A DNA stretch of 63,962 nucleotides, counting the filler, from Welwitschia mirabilis (lineage: Eukaryota), in NCBI GenBank assembly GCA_051453625.1. It is 5 parts of one record of this genome, joined end to end, with 100 filler letters (N's around TTAATTAATTAA, not from the genome) between each part and the next. Parts side by side here need not be neighbours in the genome. Positions count along the whole stretch, not along the records: positions 38,530 to 58,027 come from JBOZIK010000001.1; 4 more parts are not named here. The stretch is one strand, 5' to 3'. This document shows positions 15,383 to 61,287 of this stretch, in pieces. How positions within the stretch are numbered: position 1 is the first letter of the stretch; every line of letters starts with the position of its first letter. Both the position numbers and the translations under genes were made by a program. The notes under the pieces were generated by a model. It did no database searches, was not told where the DNA came from, and saw only the letters and a list, made by a program, of their open reading frames with translations.

Positions 15383-15634
15383 AGATTGCGTCTTTTGCTG
15401 GAGTTAATTTAGGAGTTGAATAAGTTACCTGAAATTATCATTAGCAGTTAGTTTAAGTTAGTTTCCTGATTTTTCTAGTATCAGTTGATAGCTGTTAAGT
15501 TAGTTTCTTGATTTTTCTACAATCAGTTTAGAGCTGTTAAGCTTATTTCCTTGTATAAATTTGAGATCATGTTCATAATAAAGTATGTGATTCTTAGTCT
15601 TGTCTTCATTACTTTTCTTCTGTTATACCCTACA
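15377..15634 (+). repeat. Copia 3' LTR (258 bp)
   Basis: TGTTAAAGATTGC...ACCCTACA, preceded by a purine-rich tract and followed by the TSD ATAGT. Confidence 0.92.
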
Positions 15635-20647: not shown

Positions 20648-20747
20648 NNNNNNNNNNNNNNNNNNNNNNNNNNNNNNNNNNNNNNNNNNNNTTAATTAAT
20701 TAANNNNNNNNNNNNNNNNNNNNNNNNNNNNNNNNNNNNNNNNNNNN
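20648..20747. other. Artificial scaffold linker N44-TTAATTAATTAA-N44
   Basis: Exactly 100 bp with a six-frame stop core, identical at four places in the window. Confidence 0.97.
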
Positions 20748-28200: not shown

Positions 28201-28359
28201 GAAAACCTTAGGTACAAAATACTTCCTTAGAAGCTAAGAAAACAATTTGGCATGTAATGAAGCAAATGCTTTGGAGAGATAACACTCTTGTTATTTAGCA
28301 CTGCACTAGCCAGCGTAGAATTAGACTACTTCTAACACAAAAAATAAATAAATAAATAA
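25271..28359 (+). mobile_element. LINE-B, a 5'-truncated L1-type copy inserted into LINE-A in the opposite orientation
   Basis: Starts at the end of the APE domain (KLDGFLVN). Has a decayed KSxGxDxF motif, the RT core (EGISNLIHV*HVDDNFIF, about 26700-26760) and an A-rich tail AAAAATAAATAAATAAATAA at about 28339-28359. Confidence 0.8.
27826..27953 (+). repeat. Perfect 62-bp tandem duplication
   Basis: TCCTCATGTGTTATGG...GGAAAAGAAAC occurs twice in tandem. Confidence 0.9.
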
Positions 28360-36697: not shown

Positions 36698-38190
36698 ACT
36701 CTTGCTAACTTGCAAGTTACAAAAAGAAAGAAAGAAAAAAATAAAAGGGAAAGACAAGGGAGTTGAGATTGGTTTTGTGAAACTTCGTAGGGAAAGTAGG
36801 AAGCAAGCAAGCTCCAAGTGTGCCCAATTTGTCCTCCTGCAAATCCTTACTTGACCATATGCAACATTAACCTGTAACAAACTTCAGACCATCAAGTGTA
36901 AAAGCTCGAGTCATAGCGACATAGTCTCATTCGAGTGTTGCTACATTCAACAGTCACTGATCCTTCACAGCCTTGCAATAAAAATAGAAAGTGTGAACTT
37001 ATAGTGCACAAGATCTATGAAACTACAAAGATGAAGATCAATTAACTTATTCGGATTCACTCGGTTGACCAAAGCAAAACTTGATAGTGCATTGCTACTT
37101 AAGTATTCCTAGTACAAACTAAATTGAAACTAACAATCAAAAGAAAAGAACTCTTTAGTATTAAATCAGAAAAATGTACATTACATCAAAGATGAAGGAA
37201 GCAGAAAGGACTCCTCAAGCTCCTTGGAATAAGATCACATCTCAAAGAAGTAATCAGAGGGCCATTATGCCTTAACACTCTAATAATTTTTACTTTACCC
37301 AAATGAAGGATGAATACAATGAAGGACTCAATGCCCTATTATAGGTGAGCATGAGGTAGGGGTGGTTATAAGATCTTAATGTATAGCATTAGATGGACGA
37401 CTACATAATCATGACATTCGGTAGGATGATTTATCATTTATTACATTTTGTACAAATTCTCATGATGATGCTAATACTTGGAATCTCGGTGTTGTAGTTA
37501 CTACCAATTATTATCATTATCATCTATCTCTATAATTATCCTAGTTAGGCCAATCAAATGTCATAAATGTGAGTAATTCTCCTTACTACTATTTATTATT
37601 CAGAATGAAGGATATCTTCAAGATAAAAATTAATCTAACTCTAGTTGACTAAGTTATTTATGATATTTCAAGAACATAAAATTGAAAGTGATCTACCCAC
37701 ATAGACCAATGGCACTGATATTCCTAGCTAATGCCATCTACATTCTAGGTTGAAGTATCTTTATATTTTACAAAGTTCTTTAAATGTGATAGCTAACCTA
37801 AAAATATCATGGAAAAGTTATAAGTTCATAATTAATATTAAAAATCAATATAAGACATGTATTGTGATAAAAGAAGTTAAATTAATTTCTTCTATTAAAA
37901 TAAATTTTCCATTTAACTTGATTGTAATGTTAAATTTTTACATGTTAACACACCCCCAAATTAGACTTTTACTAGTGCCTTAGAAAAAAGTTGATAACAA
38001 CATGGTTAAACATGGAAAAATGTTTTAAATCAAATTAATTAAGTGTGAAAATGATATAACTTTGTAAATTTTATGACTAATTGTTTTTTGTAGTTAAGCA
38101 TAAAAATGAAAATTTAATGAAAAATAATGTAAAACTAGATGTCATATCCCCTAATCAAAATTCAATATGATGAAATTGTGTTAAAATAAT
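36698..38190 (-). mobile_element. Athila-like 3' LTR (36698-37950) with PPT and adjacent internal sequence
   Basis: Aligns with 44878-45534 and about 38640-39390. Minus strand reads TTTGGGGGTG-TGTTAACATG (PPT then LTR start). Confidence 0.85.
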
Positions 38191-38429
38191 GAGATTCTCC
38201 ACTTCTCTCTTTTGTATATATTTATCTGTTTGTTAAGAAATTAATAAAACCTTTAGCTGAGGGGAATTAATAAAGATAAATTTTATTATAAATTGTGCTT
38301 ATCAATAAAGTGTTTTCATTATCTTAACCATGCATTTTAAATATCAATAGATGTTTTTAATTATTATTATAATTACTAATTAATAGGTTAGTTAGTTAGT
38401 ATGTTAGTAGGTTAGTATGTATATTTTAT

Positions 38430-38529
38430 NNNNNNNNNNNNNNNNNNNNNNNNNNNNNNNNNNNNNNNNNNNNTTAATTAATTAANNNNNNNNNNNNNNN
38501 NNNNNNNNNNNNNNNNNNNNNNNNNNNNN
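38430..38529. other. Artificial scaffold linker N44-TTAATTAATTAA-N44
   Basis: Identical 100-bp linker. Confidence 0.97.
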
Positions 38530-39160
38530 ACAGCTTCTGAATTACTACAAGAAACGATGTGCTGAAACCAGTTCTTCGTTCATCATTGAAACTCATCATC
38601 TCTACAGCTCTTGGCTTGCAGCAATAGGCGAGCAGTTACATAATCATGACATTAGGTAGGACAGTTTGTCATCTTTTCCATTAAGTAAAGATTCTTATAA
38701 CACAGCGAACACTTGGCTCATAGATGCTGATGCTTCTGTCAACTACTGTCATCAACATGTCTCCCTCATTATCTTACTCATCCCTGCCAAATGTCATCAG
38801 TGTGCTTTCTCGTCATCACTGCCACGTGTCACCGAGAATGGAGGGTGTTTACAAGGTAAAATCTGATTAAACCCATAACTCCAATTGATTAAATTTTGCA
38901 TGACATTTCAAGAATGTGAAATTGAACTGTTCTGCCCTCATAGTCGTCGGCATATTAGCTTGATTGATCAACAACTTTCGACATATCCTTCAAGATGCAT
39001 TAAATACCTTGAAAATGTCATGGGAAAGTGATAGGTCCATAATTAATATTGACAATCAATAGAAGACATGTTTTGTGATAAAGTCAATTATATTAATGTC
39101 TTTCATTAACATAAATTGGTCATCTAACTTAATTGTAATGTCAATTTTTACATATTAATA
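38530..39160 (-). repeat. 3' LTR of the Athila-like element (truncated by the scaffold end)
   Basis: 38957-39160 is a close match to 45330-45534 and lies next to the PPT. Confidence 0.85.
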
Positions 39161-41195
39161 CACCCCCTAACCAGCCTTTTGCTAGTGCCTTAACAAAAAG
39201 TTAATAACGTCATGGTTAAACATGGAAAATTTGCCTTAGCCAAAGCACTCAAGTGTGAAAATGATAAGCCTTTGAAAAATTTTATGACCAAATTTACGCA
39301 ATTAAGGCATCAAAATGAAAATTTTGGTGAAAAAAGGATGTCATACCCGCCAATCAAAATTGAACTTGTCCTCAAAGTTATGTGGTGAAAAGCGTATAAA
39401 ATTATTTGAGAACATAGCCTTAAAAAGATTTTGATGAACCCTTTTACTGAAAGCAATGCAAAACGATGCAACTAAGCTATGAAAAGAGAAAAGCTAACTA
39501 ATGTGAAACAACCATTTTATTTCTTCCTAAAAATTCTAAGTAAAAAGTCAAACCCTAAAAGTCTATTTTTATAAGGTGCGGGTGAGGTGGAATGGATGAT
39601 GGAGATGAACAATGAAAATGTGACAATGGACTTAGTCATTGAATAAATGAGCAAACTTACTTAGGCTAATGATCTTTGTTATATTTTTATAATTTTAATG
39701 GACCTCGGAATCAAATAAGTGAAGTTTTGACCAAATAACTTATATGAACTCAAGAAATCGCAACAAATCCTAAGTATGAAAGTTAGAAGACAAAAAAACA
39801 ACCAACGCCTCCAATTCCCACCTTTTTTGTTCCTTTTTTCCCTTTTCTACCAATGTATATGCCCTTAGTTTTAAGCCTTTGAATCACTTTAAGCATCCAG
39901 TGTTATGACATCTCCCAGCAACAAAATTAAGCGTGTTGATATATGGAGCAGTCATTGTCACATGACCAATGTACATTCATAGCCCTGATATAGTTGAACA
40001 TGTCATAAAATAGATCGTTAGAGCTACATTATCAGTGAGCATCCATATCCCCGATGTAGTTAACTAAACCCAATATTTAAGTTATGTATGTTTGGAGAAG
40101 AGGTATATTATTTTACTTTTGTGCATCTTCTCATATTCATTTTTTTATGCACATTAGAGGGGTCATTGGCTCATTAAGCCTAGTCAAGACAAATCTTGTG
40201 CCCATCAAAAGCTTTAAACTTAAGGAGCATATACAAAGGTAGATCCCACCTTTTCAACTAAATTTTACCAAAATCGCAAACCTTAAGTGAGCGTGTTCTT
40301 AACCATCACACTTAGACTAAGCATAACTCTTCCTTTAAAACTTAAAAGCATACTCAATCGCAATTGTTACTTAGGTGATAATGAGATCAATTTATTATTG
40401 AGTTTTGTTTAAGGCCATCAACAAGGGTCTGTAAATCTCAAGAGCTCATGGATGAATGGCCTAGGTGATGGTTTATTGGGTTGGAGGGATTGATAGGAAA
40501 TGGAAGAGGTGAATGGAACGGCTTATGGGGGCGAAATGTGGGAATTTGTAAGTAAAAGGATTTAAGGCGACGATTGTAAAGATGGTAGTGCTTGTGAGGT
40601 TTATGGCGAGAAGGACCACCAAGCACACATGTTTTTAAGTTTTTTATTTTTTTCCAAAAGAAATCAAACCTAAAAGAAAAGCCTATCCTAAAAGAGAACT
40701 CTAACGTGAAAGCTAAAAATTCTCTAAAATGATATGTGCGTGAGGGCTCATGAGTGTGGAAACGACCATCAAATGATTCGAAACTTTGCGAAGTATTTTG
40801 AACTGGGACGGAATCCAAGTAAATTTTTATACATGAGTTTATGAAATCTGAAAGAACATTTGCGCAAGCAGGAAATTTTATGCATTTAAGATCATCAGCA
40901 GTCCACCCCTTAGCCTATTTATGTTTTACCAACTCCTCATGCAAGACCTCATTTTGGAGGGAAGACGAAAATGAAATGGAAATTACTTAACAAGGTAAGT
41001 GTTCATCAGAAGAACTAAAGTCTTTAAAAGTTGGTTCCAATTCGACAATAGATTTCTCTTCTTTACTAAGGCTTGGGTCTTGCTTAGTAAAAGGTGGAGG
41101 CCCATTGAGTTATGTTTAAGACAATGCTCTTTTTGTTGATGTCGCTCAATGGCTCAACCGTTTTTTGTGCAACTCTCTAAGGTATAACTTTCCTC

Positions 41196-41852
41196 TCATG
41201 GTTGTTCACCTTCTGATTCATCCTCTGATGTGTTTAACCGTACTCTAAAATACAGATTTCTTGCGCATAATTGATCATTGACTAATGCATTTCTAAACTC
41301 AAAGTCCTCTTTTGTTTCTTCCTCATTGGATGTGGCTTGAGTATCGATGATTTCACTATCCTTAATCCTCTCAAAATTTTCAAGGCTCTTAGACTCGTGG
41401 ATTGGAGGAAGATCTTCTTTCTGTTGGTTAAGGGCTTCCATGATTTGAGCATAAGTTTGGGCGATTTGTTGGAGGGTTTGGATTTGGGCTTGGAAACTTT
41501 GTTCAAGATTGTCATGGAAAGAGGAGTGTTGTTCAAAAATTCTTTCATGGTCTTCATTAATTTGATTTTGAGCATCCATGAAAGCTTTTGCTCTCTCCTT
41601 AAATGTGGTGGATGAAGGTTGTTGTTGAGTGAGGGAATATGGATGGTAAAGATCAAATGATGAAAGATAGGGATCATGAGAGTGGATCAAACTTTTGTTG
41701 GTAATAATGTGTTTCAAGTTTAGGATAAGAAGTTTAATTGGTAAGTGAAGGGTGTTGATCAAACGAATATGGAGAAGAGGGTGAAGGATAAGGGTTGTGG
41801 TGTTTGGGTTAGATGAAGTCCCTTGAAATTTTCTTGGGCCGAATGTAATCAC
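41196..41852 (-). pseudogene. Athila-like gag C-terminal remnant (coiled-coil, Q/E-rich)
   Basis: KAFMDAQNQINE...QAQIQTLQQIAQTYAQIMEALNQQ resembles the post-gag coiled coil of Athila polyproteins. The similarity is compositional. Confidence 0.45.
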
Positions 41853-42453
41853 CTATAGTTTCAGGCTGAGCATAATTGGACGCATTCTAGGGATTATCAC
41901 AGTTTCCATAAGCAAGGTGAGGTTTAATAGGTGTTTCAAACGGATTATGTGCCCAACTCACCTTAAAGTTTTCAAAAACGGTTTACGAAATTTACTAAAA
42001 GGCTTACGTTTTCATTAATTATTCAAATTTTCAGAGGTGTCTGATATTTGAACAGTTTTACCAAGTTGAAAAGAGAAGTTTTGTGATTTTTTAGAGTGTT
42101 TTGAGCGAAATGGCTCATAGCACCGATAAGGGAAGATGGCGGCAATGGTCAAGATGAGAGTTACCACTACAAAAAAACAGAGAGTTTTGCAAACATCTCG
42201 TGCATCGAACAATGTTACAAGGTCGCAGAAAAACCAAAACAAAAATAAGAACGTGAGCACACACGAAATCTGTGCTTAACAAAAATTGATTAAAAAATTT
42301 TAGGACTTAAAAAATTTTTGGACGTAAAAAATTAAAAAAAATTGAACTTAAGAAATTTAGGACTTAAAAAATTTACAAGGATCGTGTGCTGCAATGAAGA
42401 CAGGAATAAAAAAGTAATATTGAAGAGCAAAAAAAAGAATCCAAGAAAAGAAA

Positions 42454-42509
42454 CAAAAGATAGCACAAAGTGCTTTCGGGGAGTTACACCCCTCGTCTGC
42501 GTGCTTTTG
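42454..42509 (-). ncRNA. Type I hammerhead ribozyme-like motif (U4A core variant)
   Basis: Minus strand reads CAAAAG-cac-G CAGACGA GGGG-tgtaact-CCCC GAAA GCAC-ttt-GTGC TA T-CTTTTG. It has stems II and III, the GAAA box, a CUA cleavage triplet and a bulged stem I. The core reads CAGACGA instead of CUGANGA. Confidence 0.72.
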
Positions 42510-42724
42510 AATTTCTGATTTCTGAATCTTGGAATACATGGAGGAGATTACACCTTGAAATAGGAGAGGCTGCCCTAACTATTGGCAGGAAAGGGGGCCC
42601 AAAGAAAGGGCAAGAAAAAATTACATTTCAAATTTCAAATTCCCATCTTTAGAAAATAAGAAACGGAAAGAAAATAGAATAAGTAACACCCCATAAAGTG
42701 GATAGGAAGCATGAGGTGAGAAAA

Positions 42725-44428
42725 CTAAGATCTCCTGACTGCTCTGATTAAACAGGAATCTCTATGGAATTGGCTACATGTAACAAGTTTCCCAAGTTTA
42801 GGAGGATTCTGCTAGCAAATTGTTGGATCTGGAATAACTGGGCTCGGCATGTGATCATTTTGGGTAAGCCTAGAAAGTATAGGATTTAGGATTGGGCCCA
42901 TGTTACAAGATCTTGTCGAAGGACTAAAATCCATTTTGAAAACAAGGGGGTTCCCTTTCTTCTTCCAAATGCTTCCATGTATGCTATGGAGAAGAGTTGT
43001 TCTATCAAATGCAGAAACTTTGTTGAAGCAATGTAAAAGGAACTTGGAAGGGTAGCCGCAGGCGCAAAGGCAAAGATACAGGTTACGCTTGGAACTGGAA
43101 TAGTCCCAAAGGTTGGATTCCCGCATCAAGTATCTGCAAGGCTCTGAAATAACGAAAGCCTTCTTCTAATGGACTGGATGCCATGAGGAGAAGGGGATAT
43201 ATTGATAGGCATTCAAAGGTTTTTGGTAGCATTTGGTGGACCAAATTCCTATAGAACAAAACGTGGGACTTTTGAAAACAAACAACATCTAGAATGTTAA
43301 CAAATTCTTGGGATACTGAGTAATGTNNNNNNNNNNNNNNNNNNNNNNNNNNNNNNNNNNNNNNNNNNNNNNNNNNNNNNNNNNNNNNNNNNNNNNNNNN
43401 NNNNNNNNNNNNNNNNNNNNNNNNNNTTGGGATACTGAGTAATGTGAATGCTGAGGTACATAGAATTGTAGCTCTCCAAAAACATTGTTAAGGAATCTAA
43501 GGGACTAGTCCAAATACCAAAGGCATCATCAATATAACACTTGTAGTAGAAAAGAAAATGTATGTTCATATTGGAGAAAAGTTGCTTCTCTAGATGACAG
43601 AGGGATAAACAAGCATACATCACTGCAAAATTACTGCCCATAGCAGTACCACGAACCTCTTTGAACAAATTGCCATCAAACTCCCAATAATTTTCTCCAA
43701 GGACAAGAGANNNNNNNNNNNNNNNNNNNNNNNNNNNNNNNNNNNNNNNNNNNNNNNNNNNNNNNNNNNNNNNNNNNNNNNNNNNNNNNNNNNNNNNNNN
43801 NNNNNNNNNNNNNNNNNNNNNNNNNNNNNNNNNNNNNNNNNNNNNNNNNNNNNNNNNNNNNNNNNNNNNNNNNNNNNNNNNNNNNNNNNNNNNNNNNNNN
43901 NNNNNNNNNNNNNNNNNNNNNNNNNNNNNNNNNNNNNNNNNNNNNNNNNNNNNNNNNNNNNNNNNNNNNNNNNNNNNNNNNNNNNNNNNNNNNNNNNNNN
44001 NNNNNNNNNNNNNNNNNNNNNNNNNNNNNNNNNNNNNNNNNNNNNNNNNNNNNNNNNNNNNNNNNNNNNNNNNNNNNNNNNNNNNNNNNNNNNNNNNNNN
44101 NNNNNNNNNNAGAAGATAAAGAAATGATGGCCTCTTGATAAAGCTCCTGATTAGGAAAAGGATGCAACATAAAATACTCTTCAACCATAGATTTAAGAGC
44201 TGAAAGACTTGCTTCAGTAGGGATGCTAGGATACAGGGATTCCACATCGAATGTAAAGAGGAATGCATATTGTGGGATGGTTAAAGAACTCAAATCCCAA
44301 ATGAGAGAAACCGAGTCTATGAGATGGGTGGGCTAGCAGAATAGGATGGGGAAGAGTAAGTAGTAAACGAGGCGAGATGTTGGTTCCAACATATACCCAG
44401 AGTAGCTGCAGATGGGATGACCAACCAA
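42725..44428 (-). pseudogene. PLE reverse transcriptase (RT core, thumb and C-terminal extension) with stops
   Basis: LVGHPICSYSG (GRPI motif), FTFDVESLYPSIP (DVESLYPSIP at 44219-44248), ENYWEFDG..GTAMGSNFA (GTAMGS at 43633-43650), YIDD (43525-43536), VNILDV, YQKPLNAYQYIPFSSWHP, L..CGYP, NPPKLGKLV. Terminal stop at 42725-42727. Confidence 0.92.
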
Positions 44429-44754
44429 ACTAGTGTTTTTTAACAACGAGCTTACACAAAACTGGAATTAAAAATGCCAAAAAATTAAAGGCACGCAAAG
44501 TTAATTAAAATTTTTCGTTTTTAAGTTTTCTCCTTGTGCTACCTACAGACCTACACAGAAACAAGTTAGAAAGAAAGCAAACCAAGCCAGTTCAGACATC
44601 ACTAGAATGACCAGTACCAACCGCTGAAAGGAAAAACACACAAAAGAAAAGGAAAAATGACCAGTTCGGGTATCACTAGAAAGGACCAGCACCCACCACT
44701 AGAAAAATAAAATCTAAAAAGTTTCGCTCTTTCTGAACAGCTACCGTGCCATTA

Positions 44755-44772
44755 TCCCTAGCAACAACGCCA
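44755..44772 (-). promoter_or_regulatory. Athila-type primer-binding site (tRNA-Asp-like)
   Basis: Minus strand TGGCGTTGTTGCTAGGGA versus the Athila consensus TGGCGCCGTTGCCGGGGA, 5 nt inside the LTR end. Confidence 0.8.
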
Positions 44773-44777
44773 AAATC

Positions 44778-45534
44778 TGATCATAGCTTTATAGCGATCT
44801 AGATTTAAAACTAAGCTTACACTTAGTTATCATTCTTCCACAAGGACGATTGGGGTTAACTAAATAGAAATTGCACTAACTCTTGCTAACTTGCAAGTTA
44901 CAAAAAGAAAGAAAAAAAAAGAAAAGGGAAAGAAGAGGGAGTTGAGATTGGTTTTGTAAAACTTTGTAGGGAAAGTGGAAAGTAAGCAAGCTCCAAGTGT
45001 GTCCAATTCATGCTTCTATGAATCCTTACTTGACCATATGCAACATTAACCTGAAACAAACTTCAGACTATCAACTATAAAAGCACGGGTCATAGTGACA
45101 TAATCTCATTCACCATTTGAGTGTTGATGAATTCGACGGCCACTAATCCTTCATAGCCATTACGCCTTGACGCTTCAAGGGTTCCATGTTTTACCCAAAC
45201 AAAAGATGAATACAATGAAGGGCTCAAGGCCCTTTTATAGTTAAGCATGGGGTGGGGGTAGTTACAAGCTCTTGGCTTGTAGCGTTAGGTAAGCAGCACC
45301 AGTAGTCCTAACCCGCAGCGCCAGCGTTTTAGCTTGATTGATCATCAACTTTCGACATACCCTTCAAGATGCATTAAATACCCTAAAAATGTCATGGGAA
45401 AACAATAAGTTCATAATTAATATTGAAAATCAATAGAAGACATGTTTTGTGATAAAATCGATTATATTAACGTCTTTCATTAAGATAAATTGATCATTCA
45501 GCTTGCTTGTAATATCAATTTTTACATGTTAACA
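44778..45534 (-). repeat. 5' LTR of the Athila-like element (757 bp, internally deleted)
   Basis: Minus strand TGTTAACATG...GCTATGATCA. Lacks blocks that are present in the 36698-37950 copy. Confidence 0.85.
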
Positions 45535-47214
45535 CTGATTTATAACGATTTTTGAAGAGGTCTGCCACATAATATTTCCCTTAGATAATCAAGACGGGTG
45601 GCAATCAACCCCATATTTACTTTAGGGGCATTATTTTGTTTCATTTTATTTTATTATTAATCTTTTAGCCTGTGCTGATGATCTCAAATGAAAGGAGACA
45701 ACTCTGATGAAGTCACCATCACCCATGATATCTTAATATCATGAAAGTTTAATAAATGATGAATTTTTGTTGACTATGGAACATGTAAAATCCAAGAATG
45801 ATCATCAATGCAGCATTAATAAATAAGAAAAAGTACAACTGCTATCTCATTATACCAGCATTAAACTACTATATGTTCTGATCAGATGCTTAATAACGAA
45901 AACACAATTCCACAAACAACATACTAACCCTAGGAATCCAATGTCTATCTAACAGAGTGGACTCCTAAGGTCATGATAAAAATCTAACAAAGATAGTCTA
46001 GAATAATTAGAAGTTCAAGACTAAAAATAACAACCAAAAACAGACAGCCCGCACATTGGAAGCTGACGCTAAGAAAATGCATCAGTTCAGGAAAATTATA
46101 CACATCTAAATGGTGAGAAACCACTTAATTACCATGATAAAGCACAATTCTAATTTCAGGTTCATGTCACTTGAATGTGGCCATCTTATAGATTCTACAA
46201 GCTCCTACAAATGAGATTAAGCTTGTAAAAGATGGCTACCAATAGTGGGCAATGTAAAAATGTACTCTTATTGCTAAATTGTTGTAAAACTCGACATAAG
46301 TGAAGTGAATTTCACAAGTTTGTGAATAGCTTGCGAAGTTTGTGAGTCTCAGAAACTTTGCAAGGTTAAACAAACAAACTCGGTGAGGCAATTTCTACAT
46401 AGAAATTGCGTCAAGTTCCAACTTTGGCCAACTCCAATGCCTGACCCACATCAAGTACATGTCCAAAAAGTTTTTAAACATGAATTTCATTTTTTAAAAA
46501 AAGGACATATTTTGAGATGGCCTCTATTTCTATAAAAAAATAAAAACTGGAGAGGGTTTAGAAACTCTCATTTGACTCATGCCAGTGAAATCACGAACTA
46601 AAGGAGTGGCGTTAGAGCAACATGTGAGAAGACACACAATGAATCTAGAAGAACAGGATTTTAGAAGAAGCTAGAGCAACAGCTTGTGTTCATTGTGACT
46701 GTCGATCCTTCCAATCGACTCTGAGAGCTCTGTATTGGTTTCCTTTGAAGTAGGGTAAATTGGGCCAAAACCACATTACCCTGTGTTTATTCTTTCTTGG
46801 TTGCTATTTTTCTTGTAGATTTTTGTTATTATTAGAGCCTTAATTAAAGGCCTACAAGCAATCTCAATTTCTTTCTAGTGAACCTTGTGAACAGAGCGAG
46901 CTAAGTAAGTGCACTAATTTTTGACTTGTCCACAGAATAGTTAGGGGTCTTTTGTTTAGGAGAATGTACAAACTACAAACTTCAAAACATACTCATGAGA
47001 AAACTAGAACGTCTAAATCATTTTGATGCAAGATGTTTTGTTAAAAACGTGTGATATTGCCATCATAGGTTTAAAATCCAATAGTGTGTAAGGTTGGGAA
47101 AACTAGACAAAAAGGCTCTTTCTCTCATATGTCACAACATTCTTGCATCCCTAGCAAGTACGAAGATGATGATAAGATATGGAACCACTAAAAAACATGT
47201 ATGGCAAAACCCCT

Positions 47215-48060
47215 AGAATAAATTGCACGGAAAATTCTCTTTGCCAAATCTTGTCTGGTAAATATGATCGTTTACCCTACCAGTTGCTTTCCTATATCTA
47301 ATAAGTATGCCAACTTGATAGATAATATTATCAGAGATTTCATTTGGTCGGGTGTCAAGTCCCACAACAGGCTTCATCTTATAAACTATGAGCAAATAGC
47401 CATGCCTAAAAAAGCATGTAGTCTTGGCATTAGAAAAACTATGGACATGAGCAAATGTATTCTTGCAAAGCACTATTGCAGATTTCTGTCTGACAACTGT
47501 ATTCTTTAGGTTATATTCTTTAAAGAGGATTATGATGATAAAGAAAGGCTCTTTACTTTTTGGAAGCACATGATTCGTTCCTTGAGAGAGGTTTGGCCAT
47601 AGGTTTTTGAAAATCAAACTCTTCCCACTCAAAATGGCAAAATAAGCATTTCAGTGATCTGTCATAATTTGTTTGAATATGACTATAGATAGAAGAAATT
47701 ATGGAAACTAGATATTCTAGAAAAAAATTTAGATATTTTGGTGGTATATGTTAAAAGATTTATTCCCACAGCAAACAAGCTCATTCAAAGGAACATAAAA
47801 GTTAATCAAGATTGTCCAATGTGTCATGAAGAAAATGAGTCCCAAAATCACCTCTTCATTTAATGTTCTATTGCAAAGGATCTCTAGAAAGGCTTGAATA
47901 TACCTCCCCCTTCTCAGATTAGCTTGGATACTTTCAATTCTTTAAAGAAAAATGCCTTCATGATTATTAGTTCTTGGCTTTTATAGAAGCATAAATGCAA
48001 TATTATCTTTTAATAGTAAAAATTATCCCTCTCAAAGTTGAAATTCAAAATCATCAGATA
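47215..48060 (+). mobile_element. L1-type LINE 3' fragment (RT C-terminus and zf-RVT)
   Basis: IDNIIRDFIWSG...INYEQIAMPKKACSLGIR and CPMCHEENESQNHLF. Confidence 0.8.
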
Positions 48061-51000
48061 GATTAGAGAACCGGATCAAGTCCAGGTCTATAAAAAACGT
48101 GGCAGCCCAAACCCTGCAAACAGAATTGCGCCCATTTGCAGGAAAATGCGTAGTGTCCGAACTGCACTAAAGTGGAGCGTCTGAACCGTGCCCGAGCACC
48201 CGTTATGATCTCAATGTGCCAGAAGACACGGGGAAAGCTCTGAGAACTAAACCTACCAAGCTCTGAGAGGCCTTTCAAGTAGCAAGATTTGATTCTTATG
48301 TCCTTAGCCTCAAAAGGCATGATCCTGATCTCTCCAAACAATTCTTCAGAAACTAGAATGGCAGATCTACTCAGATAGGTAACACTACCATCTTCATTGA
48401 TAGTCCTTCCATTAGTGATGCCACTCACGTAAGTCCTCAAGGTATAAACTAAAAAGGGGTGCCCCCAAGGCTTTCATAGTTCCTCATTTCGAACGATTGA
48501 TTGGGAAAACACCGCTAAAGAGAGGAGGAAGCTACAAAAGGAAGGATCTGCCACGGTCCTATGATTCTTAGGCTGCTTTGATCATGAAATATTTCACCTT
48601 GCCTGTAGCTTCTAGATCTTTACAGTCTCTTGATACTATCATTTCAAAATTGCTAGACGCAAATGAGACAAAAACTATAGAACCCTCTAGTAGAGCATCG
48701 AGTATTAGAAAGGGTTTCTCACACAAAAGAGAAGATGTTCATGGACATACTAAGAGCATAAGTAAATTTGCTGGCAGAAGCCAAGTCGTTTGCTGGTATT
48801 GTAAGAAGAAGGGTCATATAAACAAAGATTGTTATGCCTTAAAACATAAGAAGAAAGGCAAGCGACCTGAGAACAGCAAACAAAAACAAGTACAATTCGA
48901 TGGGGATGTTTCAATCATGCTAATTGCTAAAGATGGAGATGCTCATGTCTCCACGTACTCTACTCCTGATGTATGAATTCTATATTCAAGAGGTTCTTTC
49001 CATGTCTATCCACATAAAGAATATTTTTCTGACTACAGATCCATTTCTGGAAGAGAAGTCTTCTTGGGAGATGACAAATCATGCATTGTTAAAGTAATTG
49101 GTGTTGTCATTCTAAAACAGAGTAACGGCAGAATGTGACATTAAGGAGTGTTTACCATGTTCCTTGTATTACAAAGAATTTTATCCCTTTTAGATAGGTA
49201 GATGACTTGGGGTGTAGAATTACATGCTAATGAAAGCTGAAAAGTAAGCAAAAGGGCAATGACACTAATGCATAGAAAGAAAAAGGGACGCTGTATATAT
49301 CGAGAGCATGTGCAGTTGAAGGATATGCTGCTACTGCTGCAATTTCGAAGGACAATATTACTCTGTGGCACTACAAACTCAGACACCTCAACAAAATCGA
49401 AATGAAGGTACTTATTTCTAAGAATCTGCTGCCTGAGTTTTCTTCCTTTTCTCTAGATTGTTGTCATGATTGTGCTATCAATTAAAAAAAGGTGTGTTGC
49501 TTTTAAGAAATCTGTTTTGAATAAGGAGATAAGAAAGCTTGATATTGTGTATTCCGATGTTGTTGGTCCAATGGACGTCATGTCTTTAGGTGGTGCATCA
49601 TATTTTATTACATTCATTGATAGTTTTAGCAAAAAAACGTAGATTTATTTTATGCATCCCAAAAGTCAAGCCTAAGAAAAGTTTAAGGAGTTTAAGGCTA
49701 GAAGAGAAAATGACTCTAGCTATAAAATAAAATGTCTAATAACTGACAATGGGGATGAATACACCTCCCATGAGTTTTTTAAATTTTGTAAGTAGGTTGG
49801 AACTGGACATAACAAAACACCACTAGGAACACCAAAAAATAATGGTGTTGCAGAAAGATATAACCATATCAAATCCATGCTTGCTCGATCCAATGTGCTA
49901 AAGTCATTTTGGGCAGAAGCTACTAAAACAACGCTTAGTTGATCAATCATTCTCCTCATTCAGCCTTGGATGGTGGTATCCCATAATCTGTCTAAAGGGA
50001 GTGTTCTCTTTCTCTATCTCACCTACATGTTTTTGGATGTGAGGTGTATATCCATCTGCAAGGTACAGGAAAACTGGAAGAACATGGTAGGAAATATATT
50101 TGTCCTGGCTATGGGGGAGATGATTTTGCATATAGGCTTTGGGATCCTATGACACGGAGGATTGTTAGATCACGTGATATTGAACTCAAAGAAGATGTGA
50201 TGATTTATATGTCATAGGAGAGCATTCAAAAAGAGGGAAGTTCTAATTCTTGCACCTTGCACAAGCCTAAATAGGTTGATGATGATAAGAAGCATGATAC
50301 ACATATTGAAAATGTCCAACCTAAGCTAGGCTAGCCTAAAGAAGAAAGCTTAAGTTCTAAATCTGGGTCTAATGATGATCGTACTCAAGTTCTGGCATAT
50401 GGGGTTTAGAGATCCACCAGAGTTACTATCTCACCTCAAAGATATTCTCCATCTTTACATTATGTGTTGTTTACAAGTAAGGGAGAACCTAAATCCTTTG
50501 AAGAAGTTCTTTCTTCTTCTGAGTCTCATAAATGGAAAGCTACCATAGAAGAAGAAACAAAATCATACTTGGGATTTGGTCCCCTTACCTAAAGAGAAAA
50601 GGCCTTTAAAATCTAAGTGGGTGTATGTTACCAAACAAGAGATTGGTGGTGGACAGCATTGCAAAGCAAAACTGGTGGTGAAAGGGTACAGCCAAAAACG
50701 AAGTATTGATTTTACAGAAATTTTCTCAACTATTGTGAAGCACATATCTATTTGAATTTTCCTTGGCATGGTGACTTGTTTGGATTTGGAATTAGAGCAG
50801 TTAGACGTTAAAATAGCTTTTCCGCATGGTGATCTAGAAGAAGAAATTTATATGCATGTACCACACAACTTGGAAGTAGAAGATAAAAATATACTTTGTA
50901 GGTTGAGGAAGTCTTTTTATGGCTTGAAACAGGCACCTCGGCAATAGTACAAGAAGTTTGATGATTTTTTGCAGAAACAGGGATACTCCAATTGCGACTA

Positions 51001-52101
51001 CGATCATTGTGTGTACTATTACATGAGTGCTTCAAGGGTGATTGTCATTCTTATGTTGTATGTTGACCATATATGGGTTGTTCGAAATGACATTAAAGGA
51101 ATCAAAAGACGAAAGAAGGAAATATCCAAGAATTTTGCCGCTAAAGATCTTGGGCCAGCAAAACAAATCCCTAGAATGAGGATTATTATGAGGATTGTTA
51201 GAGATAGATCACATCATAGGTTATGATTGAGCCAATCTGAATATATTGCCAAAGTTTTGAAATGTTTTAACATGCTAGATTATAAACCTGTTTGTACTCC
51301 TCTAGCTACACATTTCCAATTAACTCATCAAGTTTGTCCCACTTCAAAGGAGAAGGCAAAATGACAAGTGTGCCTTATACATCAGTTATGGGAAGCCTAA
51401 TGTATGTCATGGTCTACACAAGACCAGATATTGCTCATGCAGTAGGAGCTATCTCTCGTTTTATGAGTAATCCTGGAAGAGCATTGAGAAGCAATAAAAT
51501 GGATACTTTGTAACTTGAAGGGAACCCAACATGTGAATCCGTGTTTTGGCAATACCATTTTGCATGTTATAGGGCTAGTTGGAAGGATGCTAGAAGACCT
51601 ACTAATAGGTACATCTTTTCTCTTGGTGGTGGAGCTATTAGCTGGATGTCCTATCTACAATCAAATGTTGCTCTTTCCACTATAGAAGTTGAGTATATTG
51701 CCTTAACAGAAGCTGCTAAGGAGATGCTATGGCTGCATGGTCTTGTTGGCTAATTTGACCTTAGGGCTTAGTCAAACCAAGTTTGTCATGCATTGTAATA
51801 GTCAGAGTGCCAAGGATCTAACAAAGAGTCCTATTTATCATGCCAGAACTAAGCACATTGATATTAAATATCTTTTCATTAGGCAGAAGTTTGAAAAATG
51901 CCTATTAGATGTTTGAAAGATTCACACACATGTGTGTCTTGCTAATTTTTTGACAAAAGTTGTTAATGGCACAAAGCAAAAGGCATCTCGTGATGGAGTA
52001 GGATTGCAGACGTGATCTAGAAGCACGGACATAAGCATCTATTGGAGCTATATAAGTACTTCTTCTTGAAGGCTCATCAAATTTGTCTTCAAGTACGAGA
52101 A

Positions 52102-52638
52102 TGTTAAAAGAAGTGAAGCCAAATTCGTCTTTTTTTTTTTAATTATAACGTTATGCTTAAACATTAACAATGCCCACCCCCCACCTCCCCCCGAANNNNN
52201 NNNNNNNNNNNNNNNNNNNNNNNNNNNNNNNNNNNNNNNNNNNNNNNNNNNNNNNNNNNNNNNNNNNNNNNNNNNNNNNNNNNNNNNNNNNNNNNGAAAA
52301 AACAAAAACCCCCCAACCAAAAACCTTTTTTGCGATGTTGTAAAAGGAGGTTGTGTTTTAACTCCTTGGGTTTCTCCTTTTCTTTCTTATTTTCCCTCCA
52401 AAAGAAAGGAAAGGGAAAGAACTTTCTAGAAGAGGAATTTTCTAGGACTTTCTAGATTAACTTGGCTTAAAACCCTAGACCTATTAAGGTTGCTTAAGGG
52501 TTTGTTTTGTACAAGTTTCTTTTACTCCTTAAAGAAGATTAAAAGCTCTACCTACTTCCTTTGGCTTTCCCCTGCATTAGGGTTTTGCATGTTAACTCTT
52601 GTGTGTTGTTCTTTTGCTTGCTGTTTCCGTTTGCTACA
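52102..52638 (+). repeat. Copia LTR lying between two Copia internal regions
   Basis: TGTTAAAAG start after a PPT-like tract, ending GCTGTTTCCGTTTGCTACA. Contains a 100-N gap. Confidence 0.6.
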
Positions 52639-52699
52639 TTGGTTTTCATAACATGTTTTAGTAGACATGACCACTCTACTACTGGTTCTGTAACAAGAA

Positions 52700-55085
52700 G
52701 GGTCACATGAAAAAGGATTACCAGACATACAAAAAAGCAAAAAGAAAAGGAAGCAAATGGTAGAAAAACAGATGACCAAACAAAGAGACATGCACATCAA
52801 ACTAAAGTGATGGAGGGTAGCATTCATGTGCATGGGTTCACAAGTAATTTTTTCTCAAGATTTCATTGATGATGTCTGGTTATTGGATAGTGGTGCTTCT
52901 TTTTCACATTTGTCCAAACTGGCAGAGTTTAGTTTATATGTAGCTTAATGAAGTTAGAATAGTTGTTGCTGACAGTAGAAAGTGTAAGATACCTGGTATT
53001 GGTACTATTGTCTTACAACAGCAGAGTGGTTCGCATGTCACAATTAAAAAAGCAAGACATGTTACTGACATCAATAGAAATCTACTATCACTTGATCAAG
53101 TGGCAGTCTTCCTTGCAAGTTGCTTTTCTAAGAAAGAATGTGATAGATTAGCAAAGGTGCTATGACATTACTGAATGGTAATAAGGAAAGTTACTTATAT
53201 ATCCTTTGTGCCAGACCCACAAGTAGACAAGGTAAGGTAGTAGTTGTTGCAAAGGATGCAAATTTGTGGCATGGGCATCTTGGACATCTGGGCGTGTTTG
53301 CAATAAAGGTATTTCAATCTCAAAATCCAACCACTGTATCTACTTTTGTTTCATTAAATTTCTGTAGAGAATGTAAAGGAGGAAAGTGTAGTAGAGTCAA
53401 CTTTAAAAGCAATGCACAGTTTAGAAGCAAAACAAAATGAGAATTAATTTATTTTGATGTTGTCAATCCTCCAAATCCAACGTCTCTCGGTGGTCCCCGT
53501 TTCTTTGTTACTTTTATTAATGACTTTACTTGCAAAAGTTGGGTATGTCTATTCAGACAAAGGACATGGTTCTCAATTTTCCTAAGGAGTTTCTAGCAAA
53601 GGGGGAAACACAGATAGGTTTGAAGGTTAAGAGACTTCTCACAAATTATGGAGGTGAACAGACCTTAAATTCTGTACTTAGAAGGGCATAATCCACTTCC
53701 ATATGACACCTGAAGCTTCACAGCAAAATGGAGTCATGGAAAGATGTGATAGGGTCTTGTTGGTATGTGAAAGAAGCATGGTGGTTGATGCAAATCTTCC
53801 CAAACGTTTTTGGGTGAAGTAGTTAGTACATCAGCATATCTTATTGAGAGGTCACCCCATTAGATGGAAACTTCCGAAAATCTTACTGAAGGGAAAAGCC
53901 ATATCATATCAGCACTTGAGGTCTTTAGTTGTGAAGACTATGTTGATGTGCAAGAGTCCCATAGATCCAAGCTAGATGACAAAGCACACATGTATGTCTC
54001 TGTAGGCTATAATGGAGATGACATAGGTTTTAGACTCTGGGAACCTGCCAGCCAACAGATCATCAGATTAGAGATGTAATAGAGAAGATACTCCTTTCTA
54101 TCCACAGTAGAAGCAGAGTCATAATGTGGGAATTTCTGAGCTCATACTCAGTAGAAGGAATCTGTTGTTTTTCCCCTCAAGTCTATGATGAAGAAGAACA
54201 AGAAGAAACTGATGTGCATGAAATTAATGACACAAATCAGCAGCTTGAGGAAAGTGATTAACTAGAAAAGAAGAGGGTTTAAATGAATAGGTCAAAGGGC
54301 AGGCAGAACGAGATGTGCCTTCTCATGAGGCTCCTTCCCACTGGATAAGGAGATTAACTAGAGTTATAAAACAATCAGATAGATACTCTCCTTCCTTGTA
54401 CTATGTTTACTTAACAGATATGTGTGAACCAAAAACTGTTGCAGAAACTAAATCTTGCAGTGAATTAAAGCAGCGCAAGAAAGCAATGAAAAAGGAATGG
54501 AAGTCCACCCTTACAGGTAACCATACATGTGACTTGAAGCCACTGCCAAAGAGGAAGAAAACCCTCCATCGCACATAGCTTTTCACAAGAAAGACAGATT
54601 TGAATGAACTTATGGGGTACAAAGCAAGATTAGTACTGAAGAGTTATGCTCAGAAACCAAGTATAGATCTTACAAAGACCGTCTCTCTTGTTGTTAAACA
54701 TTCTTCCAATAGAATCGTGGTGTCCCCAGTTGTTTGTCCAGATTTGGAGTTGAAGCAGTTAGATGTCAAAACTGCACTTACTAAGCATGTATCAGTCCGA
54801 AGGTTTTGTTGATCCTGAGCATCCAGACTTAGTATGCAGATTGAACAAGATCTTGTATGATCTCAAATAGGCAACTAGACAGTGGTACAAGAAATTCAAT
54901 TCCGTCATGGAAGAACAGCAATACTGCAACTGCAATATAGATCATTTGGTGTACCTTTAAGGGCAAGTATGAGGTAAATTTTGTGTTATGTTGTTAAATG
55001 CAGGTCATATGCTTATAGCTAGAAATGACAGCAATGAAATAAGCACTTGAAATAGGAAATAAGTCAGCATGTTGATATGAAAGCA
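52700..55085 (+). mobile_element. Second decayed Copia internal region (protease, integrase, partial RT)
   Basis: WLLDSGASF, LWHGHLGH..CRECKGGK, QQNGV.ER, RSKLDDKA, RYSPSLYY..EPKT, YKARLV.K.YAQK and QLDVKTA. Truncated after the RT core. Confidence 0.85.
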
Positions 55086-55329
55086 TTAAAAGACGAGAAA
55101 AGAAGAAAAACATATTCCTTTATATCTTTTTTTCTATGTTTTCCTCTAATGAAAATCTATTGCTATTTATGTGTTTGGCTTAAATGTTGTGTCTTTTACT
55201 AATACCTTTAAATTATACAACTTTATACTAAAAGAGCAATTCAAGACCTTCAGCATTTCTGATATATTCCATAACTTATCTTATTTGAGAAGGTAACAAG
55301 TTGTCATTGTTGCTGTTTCTTTTTGTCAC

Positions 55330-57140
55330 TAAAGGTTTGGGAGCAAAGACTGATAAGGCTCAAAGAGTAACTCTTTCAGCAGTATTCAAATGGTAACTCT
55401 TTAAAAGTCACTCAAGTTCTAATCTTGCTAATTTAACTTATTCAATATGTGGATGATTCTTCTATATTTTGTGGAGTATTCGAGATATCTTGTAAACTCT
55501 TTGCTCCCTAAAAATCCAGGATTACATATTAACCTTCAAAAAAGTATGGCTCACACTTTTAACATGCATTAGAGGCAGATTCATGAAATGTAAAGAATTC
55601 TGAATCTGGCAATTAAGAGCTTATTTGAAAAATATAAAGGTGTTCCTTTTACTATAGGGAGAGTGAAGAAAAAATAAAGAAAGAATTATGGGGCCATATT
55701 CTCAATAAAATGGCAAAAGTGTTAGCAAGATAAGAAAGTAAATTTCTTTTTTAGCAAACAGAGCTCAGCTTATTCAAAGTTGTCTTCAATCCTTACCAAT
55801 TTTCTTGATGTCCTTTCTTTTTGTCAACTACATGGAAAAGTATGAAAGGAATTTTTTATGGAAAAGCACTAATGTTGAAAGAGCATCCATTTCAAAAATT
55901 GGATTCCTTGTGAAGGGCTGAAGGTGGTTTTGATCTATAAAAGATTTCATGAGTTAAATCTTTCTATCTTGGCTAAGATAGTCTAGCATTTACATTCAAA
56001 AAAGGGAAAATGGTTTCAAGTATTAAACGCCAAATATCTAAATCAGTATCCATTTCTTTGAAGGTCCACGTATTACTGCAAGCTATGCAATCTGTTATGG
56101 TTTGTAGAAATTTAGGAGATTGGTTGAATAATTATCTATTACAAATCTAACAACAAGAAAGTACTAAAATAAAATAGAAAAGCCGGCAAACAAAAGGAAC
56201 AACATAGAATTTACGTGGTTCGGGCTCTTTTTACCCTACCTCCACGAAAAGCAATGCAAAGCTTTATTGATTGATTAGGAGCAAAATGTGTCCAGATACA
56301 ACAGACAACCCTCTATCAAGTTTATATCGCCTTAGGGTTAGGGTTACAAGTCAATCCCCTTTTACAACTTTAAATAGGGTCAATGTTAAAACATTTCAAT
56401 ATAAATAATAATTTGGCTTCACATATCGACATTATCATACTCTAGGAAGTTATCCACTAGACCAAGAAGCGAGTAGATATAAAAAATGTGAATTAGCCCA
56501 AGGCTGCAATTCTTTTTCTCTCTAGCAAGATCAAATGAGTTGCCTTTTCTAGAGGGCCTTTAAAAACATGGTTGGGCGATTAGAAATTGATGTCACAGTT
56601 GCAAAAATGACAAATAATCCTTAGGACATTGCCTCTTCATTGACCATGGGCAAGGAAAGTTTGCAATTTTATTTTTTCAATGACAAAGTCGCAAATAATT
56701 CTTCCAAATAATGTTAAAAATCTAGTTAAACAATGGGATTGGTCTAATGGCAAACAAGAGATGAAAAGTACATTTTATCATTTGCTTCCACGTGTTTGAT
56801 TGCAACTTTGAAAAGAAAGCAAGTTCAAATCCTCTAGATGAAGCCTGAAAATTTAAAAAGAAATTATGTTATGAAAAGTTGTCATATTCCAATTTAATTG
56901 CTCGAGGGAAGGAAAGCCTAAAAATTTAAAAAGGAATGATGTAATAAAATATGAGATTATTGTCTTCATATTCCAATTTTCTTGTCTCTTCATCCTTGGC
57001 TTGACCCTTGTGATGGAGAAGTTAGGCAATCAAACCTTTATCACGCGAAGATTAGTTCACATTCCTTTTTCCTCTAGCTTTAGAGCCAAGGGAAGAAGCT
57101 AGATGCAGAATTGTTTCCTATCCAACATAGCCCCCTATCT
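55330..57140 (+). mobile_element. L1-type LINE remnant of the same family as LINE-A/B
   Basis: QYVDD near 55442 and colinear similarity to 26700-28200. Interrupted by a solo LTR. Confidence 0.72.
56137..56431. mobile_element. Solo LTR (295 bp) with TSD TTATC, inserted in the LINE
   Basis: TTATC at 56132-56136 and 56432-56436. Ends are TA(decayed TG)...CA. The motif ATTTACGTGGTTCGG...CCTACCTCCAC is typical of reverse-oriented Copia LTRs. Confidence 0.75.
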
Positions 57141-57228
57141 TAGGAAGGCAACACGGCTATTGTTAGTGTGGTGTACCAACCTACCATAAAAACAAATTTT
57201 AAGTTCTTCGGAAAAAAAGGAGAGTAAT

Positions 57229-58027
57229 CTTTTTTTTTTGAGAAACGGTAAATGTCTATTATATTATAACTTAAGACAAGAGGAGAAACACAATAGCTTA
57301 AAAGCTATTTTTCCAAGTGTGATAGAAATCCCGTCAATAATCAAAGCCCCAAATATCAGCATCTAATTTAGTCAACACACGTCCCAATTCCAATCAAAAA
57401 GAGGCTATTGACTAGCATACCTCAATGGGTTTACAATAAAACAAAATTTAGAAGACTCCAAAGGTGGGAAATTTTCTTGCCAATCCCAAGGCCTCTACAA
57501 TTCCAAAAAATTCATTGGAAGGAGAGTCGAAATTGCTTACCATCTCGGATGTCTTCCTTCGTCTCCTTTTCAATTTTACTTTTTCTGATATTCATCCTGA
57601 TTTTTTTGTTCGTCTGTCCAATTTTTCAAGTTCTGCTAGCTATTCACATGTATAAAGAATGCTACTCTACGTTGTTACCATTATCTCTTTGCTCCTGTCC
57701 TATTCCATTTCAAAAGGTTGTTGTAATTCAAAAGAGCAAATTGGCGCATTGTAGACACACTCTGTGTGCTACTTTTCATGTACCACTGTTTCCCGTTCAT
57801 TTCTTATTTCATTTTCCTGCATCTATTCTGGTTCTTCCTCTAATAGAATATCATATTTATTTGCATGAGTAGTTGGATCATTGTTTGGGACTAAAGCTAG
57901 TTTCTTTTTGCGATTTTTTTCTTGAATAGTTGCAAGCCATTTTTTTCCACTTTCTCATTTTTCTTACATTTTTCCATCGTATGTCCATTTTCACCACACT
58001 TCGAACATTGCAATGGAATATTTCTGA
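57229..58027 (-). mobile_element. Internally deleted L1-type LINE (ORF1 tail, ORF2 start, 3' end with poly-A)
   Basis: Minus strand has IFWNCRGLG (about 57486-57512) only about 250 bp upstream of the ...TTTACCGTTTCTC-poly(A) end at 57229-57239. Confidence 0.65.
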
Positions 58028-58127
58028 NNNNNNNNNNNNNNNNNNNNNNNNNNNNNNNNNNNNNNNNNNNNTTAATTAATTAANNNNNNNNNNNNNNNNN
58101 NNNNNNNNNNNNNNNNNNNNNNNNNNN
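58028..58127. other. Artificial scaffold linker N44-TTAATTAATTAA-N44
   Basis: Identical 100-bp linker. Confidence 0.97.
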
Positions 58128-61187: not shown

Positions 61188-61287
61188 NNNNNNNNNNNNN
61201 NNNNNNNNNNNNNNNNNNNNNNNNNNNNNNNTTAATTAATTAANNNNNNNNNNNNNNNNNNNNNNNNNNNNNNNNNNNNNNNNNNNN
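61188..61287. other. Artificial scaffold linker N44-TTAATTAATTAA-N44
   Basis: Identical 100-bp linker. Confidence 0.97.

Follow-up and report, generated by a model that had tools for sequence, protein, structure and literature searches.

A decayed, 5′-truncated reverse transcriptase copy, probably of the endonuclease-free Penelope-like type, in a plant genome assembly

A stretch of 63,962 nucleotides from the Welwitschia mirabilis assembly GCA_051453625.1 (hereafter, the window) carries a minus-strand reverse transcriptase (RT) that an earlier note, made from the sequence alone, had placed at 42725-44428 and read as a Penelope-like retroelement (PLE). PLEs are the retroelements closest to telomerase, and the locus raises the question of which class of element this RT represents, whether it is a genuine part of the plant genome, and how it came to lie where it does. 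We consider it very probable that the minus-strand segment at approximately 42331-44515 is a dead, 5′-truncated PLE of the type lacking an endonuclease domain (EN−, as opposed to EN+), belonging to a Coprina-like plant lineage.

The reverse transcriptase copy and its place in the assembly

The window is a concatenation in which spacers of the form N44-TTAATTAATTAA-N44 occur at 20648-20747, 38430-38529, 58028-58127, and 61188-61287. These four identical 100-nucleotide (nt) spacers look like artificial six-frame-stop linkers between separate, unplaced scaffolds, and adjacency across them is therefore not genomic. Given the linkers at 38430-38529 and 58028-58127, the RT sits on a 19.5-kb scaffold spanning 38530-58027.

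Every motif of the PLE series claimed for this RT was located by motif search on the minus strand between 44422 and 43049: GHPI (44422-44411), DVESLYPSIP (44248-44219), NYWEFDG (43692-43672), GTAMGS of RT motif B (43650-43633), YIDD of RT motif C (43536-43525), VNILDV (43301-43284), YQKPLNAYQYIPFSSWHP (43228-43175), and CGYP (43060-43049). The motifs are distributed over three different reading frames of an RT pseudogene at approximately 44467-42758. A database search with the open 94-amino-acid (aa) piece at 43710-43429 returned 11 proteins at E ≤ 0.001, the best with 58% identity. When these relatives, which are approximately 605 aa long, were aligned to the window using tblastn, three collinear blocks were obtained at 44431-44156, 43710-43430, and 43276-42767, with E-values from 1e-26 to 4e-48 and 54-61% identity for the best relatives. 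The blocks correspond to residues ~227-604 of the 606-aa relative P0002, and by this comparison the similarity is far above chance. A library search with 42815-43165 (minus strand) generated 20 matches, of which P0001 was the best at 54% identity. No second RT copy was detected in the window by tblastn with the 11 relatives, nor in a further search at E ≤ 1.

Homology starts at approximately 44467, which corresponds to residue ~215 of P0002, and the N-terminal ~215 residues of the relatives showed no similarity anywhere in the window at E ≤ 1; judged from these alignments, the copy is a 5′-truncated pseudogene. At the other end, homology stops approximately 20 codons past the IC[W] motif, in the manner of the ~600-aa relatives, and is followed by a stop and the 3′ untranslated region (UTR). 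As homology reaches ~42758 and a family-specific repeated stretch reaches ~42331, the element is wider than 42725-44428, so the PLE placed there was retained and its extent was revised. The whole PLE-derived segment, consisting of the RT pseudogene and ~0.4 kb of 3′ UTR, occupies 42331-44515 on the minus strand according to the tblastn blocks, sequencing depth, and unitig ends; these boundaries are approximate, and ~500 of the bases are N.

From its truncated 5′ end, the minus-strand RT consists of the fingers and the first part of the palm with GHPI, DVESLYPSIP, and one in-frame TAG (44111-44467, by tblastn), a 400-N run between RT motifs A and B (43711-44110), and the palm with NYWEFDG, GTAMGS, and YIDD, which contains the open 94-aa stretch (43429-43710, by database search and tblastn). 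These are followed by a 100-N run with an identical 19-nt string at both edges (43327-43426), the VNILDV stretch between two frameshifts (43280-43325), and the thumb and C-terminal region, which contains YQKPLNAYQYIPFSSWHP, CGYP, PLVFKMDF, and a terminal ..IC[stop], carries two TAG stops, and ends with no endonuclease domain (42758-43288). The presumed 3′ UTR (42331-42757, minus strand) is moderately repeated like the RT (depth 130-377). In-frame TAG stops lie at 44335-44333, 43168-43166, and 42814-42812, and frameshifts were placed near 43311 and 43288 by reading the frames against the relatives. As all three TAGs fall where the relatives have Q or W, they correspond to C>T or G>A changes. 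Such stops fit deamination of methylated cytosines in a silenced repeat, and differences between public contigs and the window were mostly transitions.

Among public sequencing data, 14 runs from five studies and two organisms contain the RT stretch, X1 and X5 being DNA runs. Relatives align residues 348 and 361 at the edges of the 400-N run; X1 and X5 contigs join 43683 to 44111 with 23 letters between, and in X7 contigs only 3-4 letters separate 43317/43318 from 43437. Because the relatives allow a few residues at most at the 400-N run and contigs bridge the runs with 3-23 letters, both N runs are oversized scaffold gaps; at the 100-N run, the contig ends overlap and the gap is spurious. Next to the 400-N run, 27 nt of the bridging contig do not agree with the window, and this contig therefore derives from another copy.

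These interruptions bear on whether the RT could be a contaminant or an assembly chimera of unrelated contigs. The window consists of scaffolds joined by artificial linkers, two N runs interrupt the RT, the middle RT piece is a 284-nt contig, and no public contig spans either junction between the element and its flanks. Against a foreign or chimeric origin, 44111-44467 is contiguous with 44468-52195 and 42331-43326 with 38530-42330, both of these stretches hold plant transposon remains, and the order, strand, and collinearity of the three pieces fit a single RT. On the 5′ side, the single-copy flanking sequence (44515-44724) was recovered as X7 record 21 (213 nt, depth 5.3, 0 differences), and that on the 3′ side (41784-42331) as X1 record 7 (41784-42321, depth 5.0) and X7 record 20 (41837-42331). 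The same locus was present in organisms A and B, and its flanks were recovered with 0-1 differences in independent runs. We therefore regard contamination or chimerism as highly improbable, in agreement with the earlier note, since the RT pieces share assembly contigs with plant transposons and runs of five studies contain the stretch.

Class of the element

The class of the RT was assessed from its relatives, using 122 family proteins for motif counts with regular expressions and 80 DNA loci from metagenome contigs (designated by L-numbers, e.g., L003 and L025). P0002 aligned with the distant family protein P0241 over 516 residues (29% identity, E 9e-65), and the alignment covered GLKF, ADK(N/G), all RT motifs, and the thumb. 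P0241 carries RVT_1 together with a GIY-YIG domain at its C-terminus, both above Pfam cut-offs, which is the arrangement typical of EN+ PLEs. According to PMC8557442, DKG-type and GxKF/Y motifs are diagnostic of PLEs, as are CxC and IFD of Naiad/Chlamys elements, and the DKN motif has been described for Coprina (PMC13159263). An ADK motif was found in 104 of the 122 relatives, in the form DKN in 85 of these 104 and DKG in 5, and was preceded by a Gx[KNGR][FYW][IVLA]P motif in 39. The GIY..YIG expression matched none of the 122 relatives, and among the 12 family proteins scanned with Pfam, GIY-YIG was found only in P0241. RNase H, integrase, tyrosine recombinase, and APE domains were not found in the relatives scanned.

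In the relatives, ORF1 belongs to no known family, and ORF2, of ~600 aa, comprises GxKF, DKN, RT, and thumb (ORF, open reading frame). The ORF1s are without a Pfam family except for a piece of Copia RT upstream of the RT in L015 (RVT_2, E 1e-16). The hammerhead ribozyme catalytic core occurred 43 times in 42 of the 80 loci, in all 43 cases on the RT-sense strand and downstream of the RT, and the aligned hammerheads showed paired changes in helices I and II. In Rfam, Hammerhead_HH9 was hit in L025 and L003 (E 2e-4), below the gathering score, and nothing reached the gathering score in the 20 relatives' loci searched. Telomeric repeats formed 42 runs, spread over 17 of the 80 loci and without exception C-rich on the RT-sense strand; (CCCTAAA)n makes up the end of L025, and in L025 and L003 the hammerhead lies ~0.3 kb ahead of the CCCTAAA runs. 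Head-to-tail RT-ORF1-RT arrays were present in L011, L018, and L023. This combination has been published as the hallmark of EN− telomere-associated PLEs of the Athena and Coprina types (PMC8557442).

Two further features of the repeats in these loci were observed. TTAGGG-type and TTTAGGG-type C-strand repeats co-occur in L003, L004, and L025, and long ORF1s are partly low-complexity "NPNPNP..." stretches coinciding with in-frame (CCCTAA)n runs (L003, L004, L011, L018, L023, and other loci).

That the RT belongs to another class (DIRS, LINE, LTR, where LTR stands for long terminal repeat, or group II intron) and merely resembles PLEs in its motifs could be argued from the domain and fold searches. 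Pfam returned no match at E ≤ 1 for six window RT pieces, and RVT_1 appeared only below threshold, for relatives P0001 and P0003. In the fold search with the predicted structure of P0002 (predicted local distance difference test score, pLDDT, 72), telomerase RTs accounted for 9 of the 12 best PDB matches (best E 5e-9), LINE-1 ORF2p ranked second (E 2.6e-8), LINE-1, R2, and group II RTs were listed at similar E-values, and TM-scores were 0.33-0.39. The fold result of this model is consistent with PLE ancestry and not decisive; that telomerase RTs are its best matches is in line with the published sister relation of PLEs and telomerase RT, the window RT itself being a mobile-element RT, not the host telomerase. 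Another RT class is scarcely credible against the whole-length collinearity with an RT and GIY-YIG protein, including the PLE N-terminal motifs and the thumb, together with the hammerheads and telomeric repeats in the relatives' loci and the lack of RNase H, integrase, tyrosine recombinase, and APE in the relatives scanned. The same collinearity, N-terminal motifs, hammerheads, and telomeric repeats bear out the view that this RT is unlike those of Copia, Gypsy, and L1. Two families listed in databases, PF28514 and PF26215, were not reproduced by local Pfam, and their names were not used; a PDB search by sequence gave a single non-significant match (E 0.036).

Within PLEs, the closest counterpart in description is Coprina, known from fungi, a diatom, and Selaginella (Sm1/Sm2), which, like the relatives, is EN−, carries DKN, RT, and thumb, has a 3′ hammerhead beside C-rich telomeric repeats, and forms head-to-tail arrays (PMC13159263 and PMC8557442). 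Coprina elements have been reported from Selaginella (PMC13159263), and the Selaginella protein P0143 is a member of the present family (42% identity). Coprina is usually described as having one ORF, whereas many relatives here have an upstream ORF1, and, unlike Coprina, the window copy is interstitial, 5′-truncated, decayed, and without hammerhead or telomeric repeats. Athena elements and Terminons of bdelloid rotifers resemble the relatives in being EN−, in having two ORFs and a 3′ hammerhead with C-rich telomeric repeats, and in forming chains, which in Athena lie at chromosome ends; they differ in their animal hosts and much larger composite units.

Two other PLE branches occur in green plants. 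Chlamys, Naiad, and PLE-X are, like the present family, green-lineage PLEs, and PLE-X is also EN− with canonical hammerheads, being found in Selaginella with BLASTP matches in mosses (Craig et al., PMC8557442). The family could thus represent a Chlamys/PLE-X branch (EN−, in Selaginella and Chara, targeting 28S rDNA) or Dryads that lost their endonuclease. Chlamys, Naiad, and PLE-X are described as having CxC and an IFD insert, and 28S rDNA is the target of the spike-moss families. In contrast, CxC upstream of the DK motif was present in 1 of 104 relatives, and the spacing between RT motifs A and B (median 60; 63 in P0002 vs 60 in EN+ P0241) left no room for an IFD-sized insert. DKN was also strongly conserved, neither the window nor the 20 relatives' loci gave an rRNA match, and the relatives are flanked by telomeric repeats, not rDNA. 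Dryad shares with the window family its occurrence as a PLE in a seed-plant genome, but it is described as an EN+ conifer element of Penelope/Poseidon type with a C-terminal GIY-YIG endonuclease bearing a CCHH motif, attributed to transfer from an arthropod, while the window family is without endonuclease and its relatives, unlike Dryad, follow the streptophyte order Closterium, Selaginella, Ginkgo, conifer. An origin from either branch therefore seems quite improbable, and a Coprina-like EN− element is preferred.

Relationships, copy number, and interstitial position

A wider family search gave 1496 matches, the best 120 of which were examined for organism names. The 22 organism-named rows were Closterium (11), Cryptomeria (5), Ginkgo (3), Selaginella (1), and two with labels of bacterial metagenome-assembled genomes (MAGs), and no angiosperm was among them. 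The nearest named relatives of the window RT were from Cryptomeria (54-59% identity). The two proteins with bacterial labels, P0208 (Syntrophorhabdaceae) and P0223 (Bacteroidota), lie on contigs of 3-4 kb and are probably of eukaryotic contigs mis-binned into MAGs. Of the 122 family proteins, 45 were selected for a first tree and 24 for a second, each with the window row added. Rooted with EN+ P0241, the 46-row tree branched in the order Closterium, Selaginella, unnamed rows, and Ginkgo, followed by an eight-row clade of the window, Cryptomeria, P0001, and P0002, with support of 100 in the Shimodaira-Hasegawa-like approximate likelihood ratio test (96 in the 25-row tree). The lineage is broadly streptophyte.

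The suggestion that the element might represent an undescribed lineage was not upheld, as it belongs to the EN− plant lineage, its named relatives here being from Selaginella, Ginkgo, Cryptomeria, and Closterium. PMC9033089 already includes EN− PLEs from Selaginella and, citing Lin et al. 2016, from the conifers Pinus taeda and Picea abies. Like these conifer EN− PLEs, the nearest relatives of the window RT are ~600-aa Cryptomeria and Ginkgo proteins without endonuclease; the two are presumed to be one family. According to PMC8557442, angiosperms lack PLEs, and according to PMC10473749, Penelope is missing from angiosperms and non-conifer gymnosperms. Literature searches for angiosperm PLEs yielded no described family, only mentions in repeat tables and statements of absence.

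Copy number was approached through summed contig word depth, a rough and poor measure of it. Over the RT, this depth was 93-252 in X1 and 91-504 in X5, against 4.6-9 in single-copy bins (45675-47000), and up to 27 distinct contigs were found at one RT site. In X1, 8523 of the 11091 contigs matching the stretch were 90-95% alike. These values point to tens of copies in the host, diverged by 5-10%, and with single-copy sequence immediately on either side, the copies are dispersed rather than co-amplified with these flanks. In runs of ~5.2 billion letters, single-copy words were covered at a depth of 5-7, and 28-38% of the words sampled were still present in runs of 0.75-1.1 billion letters. The raw RNA run X18 had 29 matching reads, of which 27 were only 90-95% alike and 27 lay only partly on the stretch; no RNA run was among those listed as containing the stretch.

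The tree and the divergence of the copies also bear on how the family would have reached a flowering-plant host. Entry by horizontal transfer from a conifer-like donor, rather than descent as a vertical relic, is suggested by the tree, in which the window groups with Cryptomeria and both Ginkgo proteins fall outside: forcing Ginkgo and Cryptomeria together without the window cost 10.3 log-likelihood units (approximately unbiased (AU) test, p 0.0596). The lack of an angiosperm among the named relatives in the best 120 matches and the mere 5-10% divergence of the other copies point the same way. However, at the 0.05 level the vertical topology is not rejected by the AU test, the branch of the window row is long (0.93-1.17) and its composition odd, and P0001 and P0002, of the same clade, carry no host name. 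Ancient paralogous PLE lineages would look alike, and angiosperm pseudogene copies would be missing from protein databases. We consider such a transfer rather unlikely.

The window copy is interstitial, with single-copy sequence and transposon remains on both sides, and no pseudo-LTR was seen around it. According to PMC8557442, EN− PLEs are generally confined to chromosome ends. By analogy with published Athena and Coprina work, in intact relatives the ribozyme may trim the transcript, whereupon the exposed C-rich repeats could anneal to the G-rich chromosome end and the RT extend its 3′-OH. The window copy may instead be the product of reverse transcription that was primed at a free 3′-OH inside the chromosome, at a break or nick rather than a telomere, and was not completed; silencing and decay would have followed. 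A 10-nt direct repeat (44489-44480 and 42334-42325) was considered as a target-site duplication, but the sequence is AT-rich, the repeat may be due to chance, and no duplication is claimed.

Taken together, these observations suggest, tentatively and with somewhat less than even confidence, that a Coprina-like EN− PLE occupies tens of interstitial sites in a flowering plant without an endonuclease, the present copy being devoid of the hammerhead and telomeric-repeat module. If true, no PLE family would have been described from an angiosperm before, and the family would exemplify interstitial retrotransposition that needs no endonuclease, whether it persisted as a relic since lost from most angiosperms or came from a conifer-like donor.

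Several points weigh against the main reading, a Coprina-like EN− PLE resident in the host. Rfam gave no hammerhead at E ≤ 5 within 40000-47000, and no run of telomeric repeats was found in the window. Dispersal of an EN− element at tens of interstitial sites is contrary to the published model. The DKN and GxKF motifs are known from the relatives only, since the 5′ truncation prevents the PLE N-terminal motifs from being checked in the window copy, and the clade name Coprina-like, as a sequence-based assignment, is drawn from motifs and architecture rather than from a reference tree. Since gaps separate the pieces of the RT, three in all, and the repeat family has tens of copies, the pieces could stem from more than one copy. 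Finally, the depth of X7 (221 million letters, guessed to be RNA), in which the unique flanks were at 3-7 and the RT at 65-91, misfits simple whole-genome sequencing and could reflect RNA, a clone pool, or a targeted library. As to other hammerhead candidates, Rfam found nothing at the gathering score in the whole window, and a model (R1) built from 12 relatives had its best window match elsewhere (E 0.087); its match at 42168-42217 (minus strand, E 0.4) had no catalytic core by eye and was rejected.

What the copy means depends on the host, on which the evidence is indirect. The run sizes and single-copy depths imply a genome of roughly 0.6-1.1 Gb, smaller than known gymnosperm genomes, and the 50 organism-named matches of the Copia ORF at 14666-15379 were angiosperm throughout, with none from Ginkgo or Cryptomeria, both of which have proteins in that database; a preference for eudicots over monocots would not be expected of an outgroup host. 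From these data, a flowering-plant host seems likely. A gymnosperm or other non-flowering land plant, which seems rather improbable on the same data, would agree with the grouping of the window RT with Cryptomeria and with the lack of angiosperms among its named relatives, and the 61-67% identity with Copia proteins of eudicots is no proof, Copia lineages being old. In a flowering plant, the EN− plant PLE lineage of Closterium, Selaginella, Ginkgo, and conifers would extend into angiosperms, and the locus would offer a testable case of an EN− element colonising internal chromosome sites, in a family now missed or mislabelled by transposon annotation pipelines. In a gymnosperm or other non-flowering land plant, this would be an ordinary decayed EN− PLE such as conifers and Selaginella are already reported to have.

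Neighbouring sequence

The repeat at 44607-45674 had a summed depth of 1954-3357 in X1, against 4.6-9 for single-copy sequence, and parts of it recur at 36698-39364; it is probably the LTR and leader of a high-copy LTR retrotransposon. Next to it, a motif at approximately 44772-44755 (minus strand) resembles a tRNA-Asp primer-binding site. The pairing of 36698-39161 with 44879-45535 (~85%) as LTRs is weakened because the first of the two copies is divided over two scaffolds by the linker at 38430-38529. With this apparent LTR pair partly split and the immediate flanks of the PLE single-copy, the proposed insertion of the PLE within an Athila-like element was not sustained.

Downstream of the RT, the ORF at 41199-41852 (minus strand) was considered as ORF1 of a tandem unit and rejected, as it showed no similarity to the N-terminal extensions of the relatives. 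In Atlas, it was assigned to Streptophyta hypothetical proteins (0.92) and to "Retrotransposon gag" (0.80-0.82), the latter a weak lead only.

Other transposon-like features lie elsewhere in the window. A Copia-type element at 10320-15576 (plus strand) contains Retrotran_gag_2 at 10992-11456 and integrase, RT, and RNase H-like ORFs at 11776-15379, with 117-nt direct repeats at 10320 and 15460 that are 90% alike. Within it, a duplication of ~850 bp (13557-14137 vs 14403-14984, 90-91%) lies beside a 100-N gap and may be an assembly artefact. Among the best 120 matches of its ORF at 14666-15379 (54-67% identity), 50 were organism-named, comprising 48 eudicots and 2 Persea, with no monocot and no gymnosperm. 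We take the ORFs at 6666-8562 (minus strand), by eye, to resemble the C-terminus of a hAT-type transposase and a DUF659-like region. Nested inverted repeats at 25333-29829, with four arm pairs of 115-140 nt that are 71-78% complementary, may represent a DNA transposon with long terminal inverted repeats. The ORF at 47222-47506 (plus strand) resembles, by eye, the C-terminal zinc-binding region of a plant L1 ORF2, and 48572-54575 (plus strand), which begins with a gag zinc-knuckle ORF (48572-48973), resembles, again by eye, a second Copia-like element.

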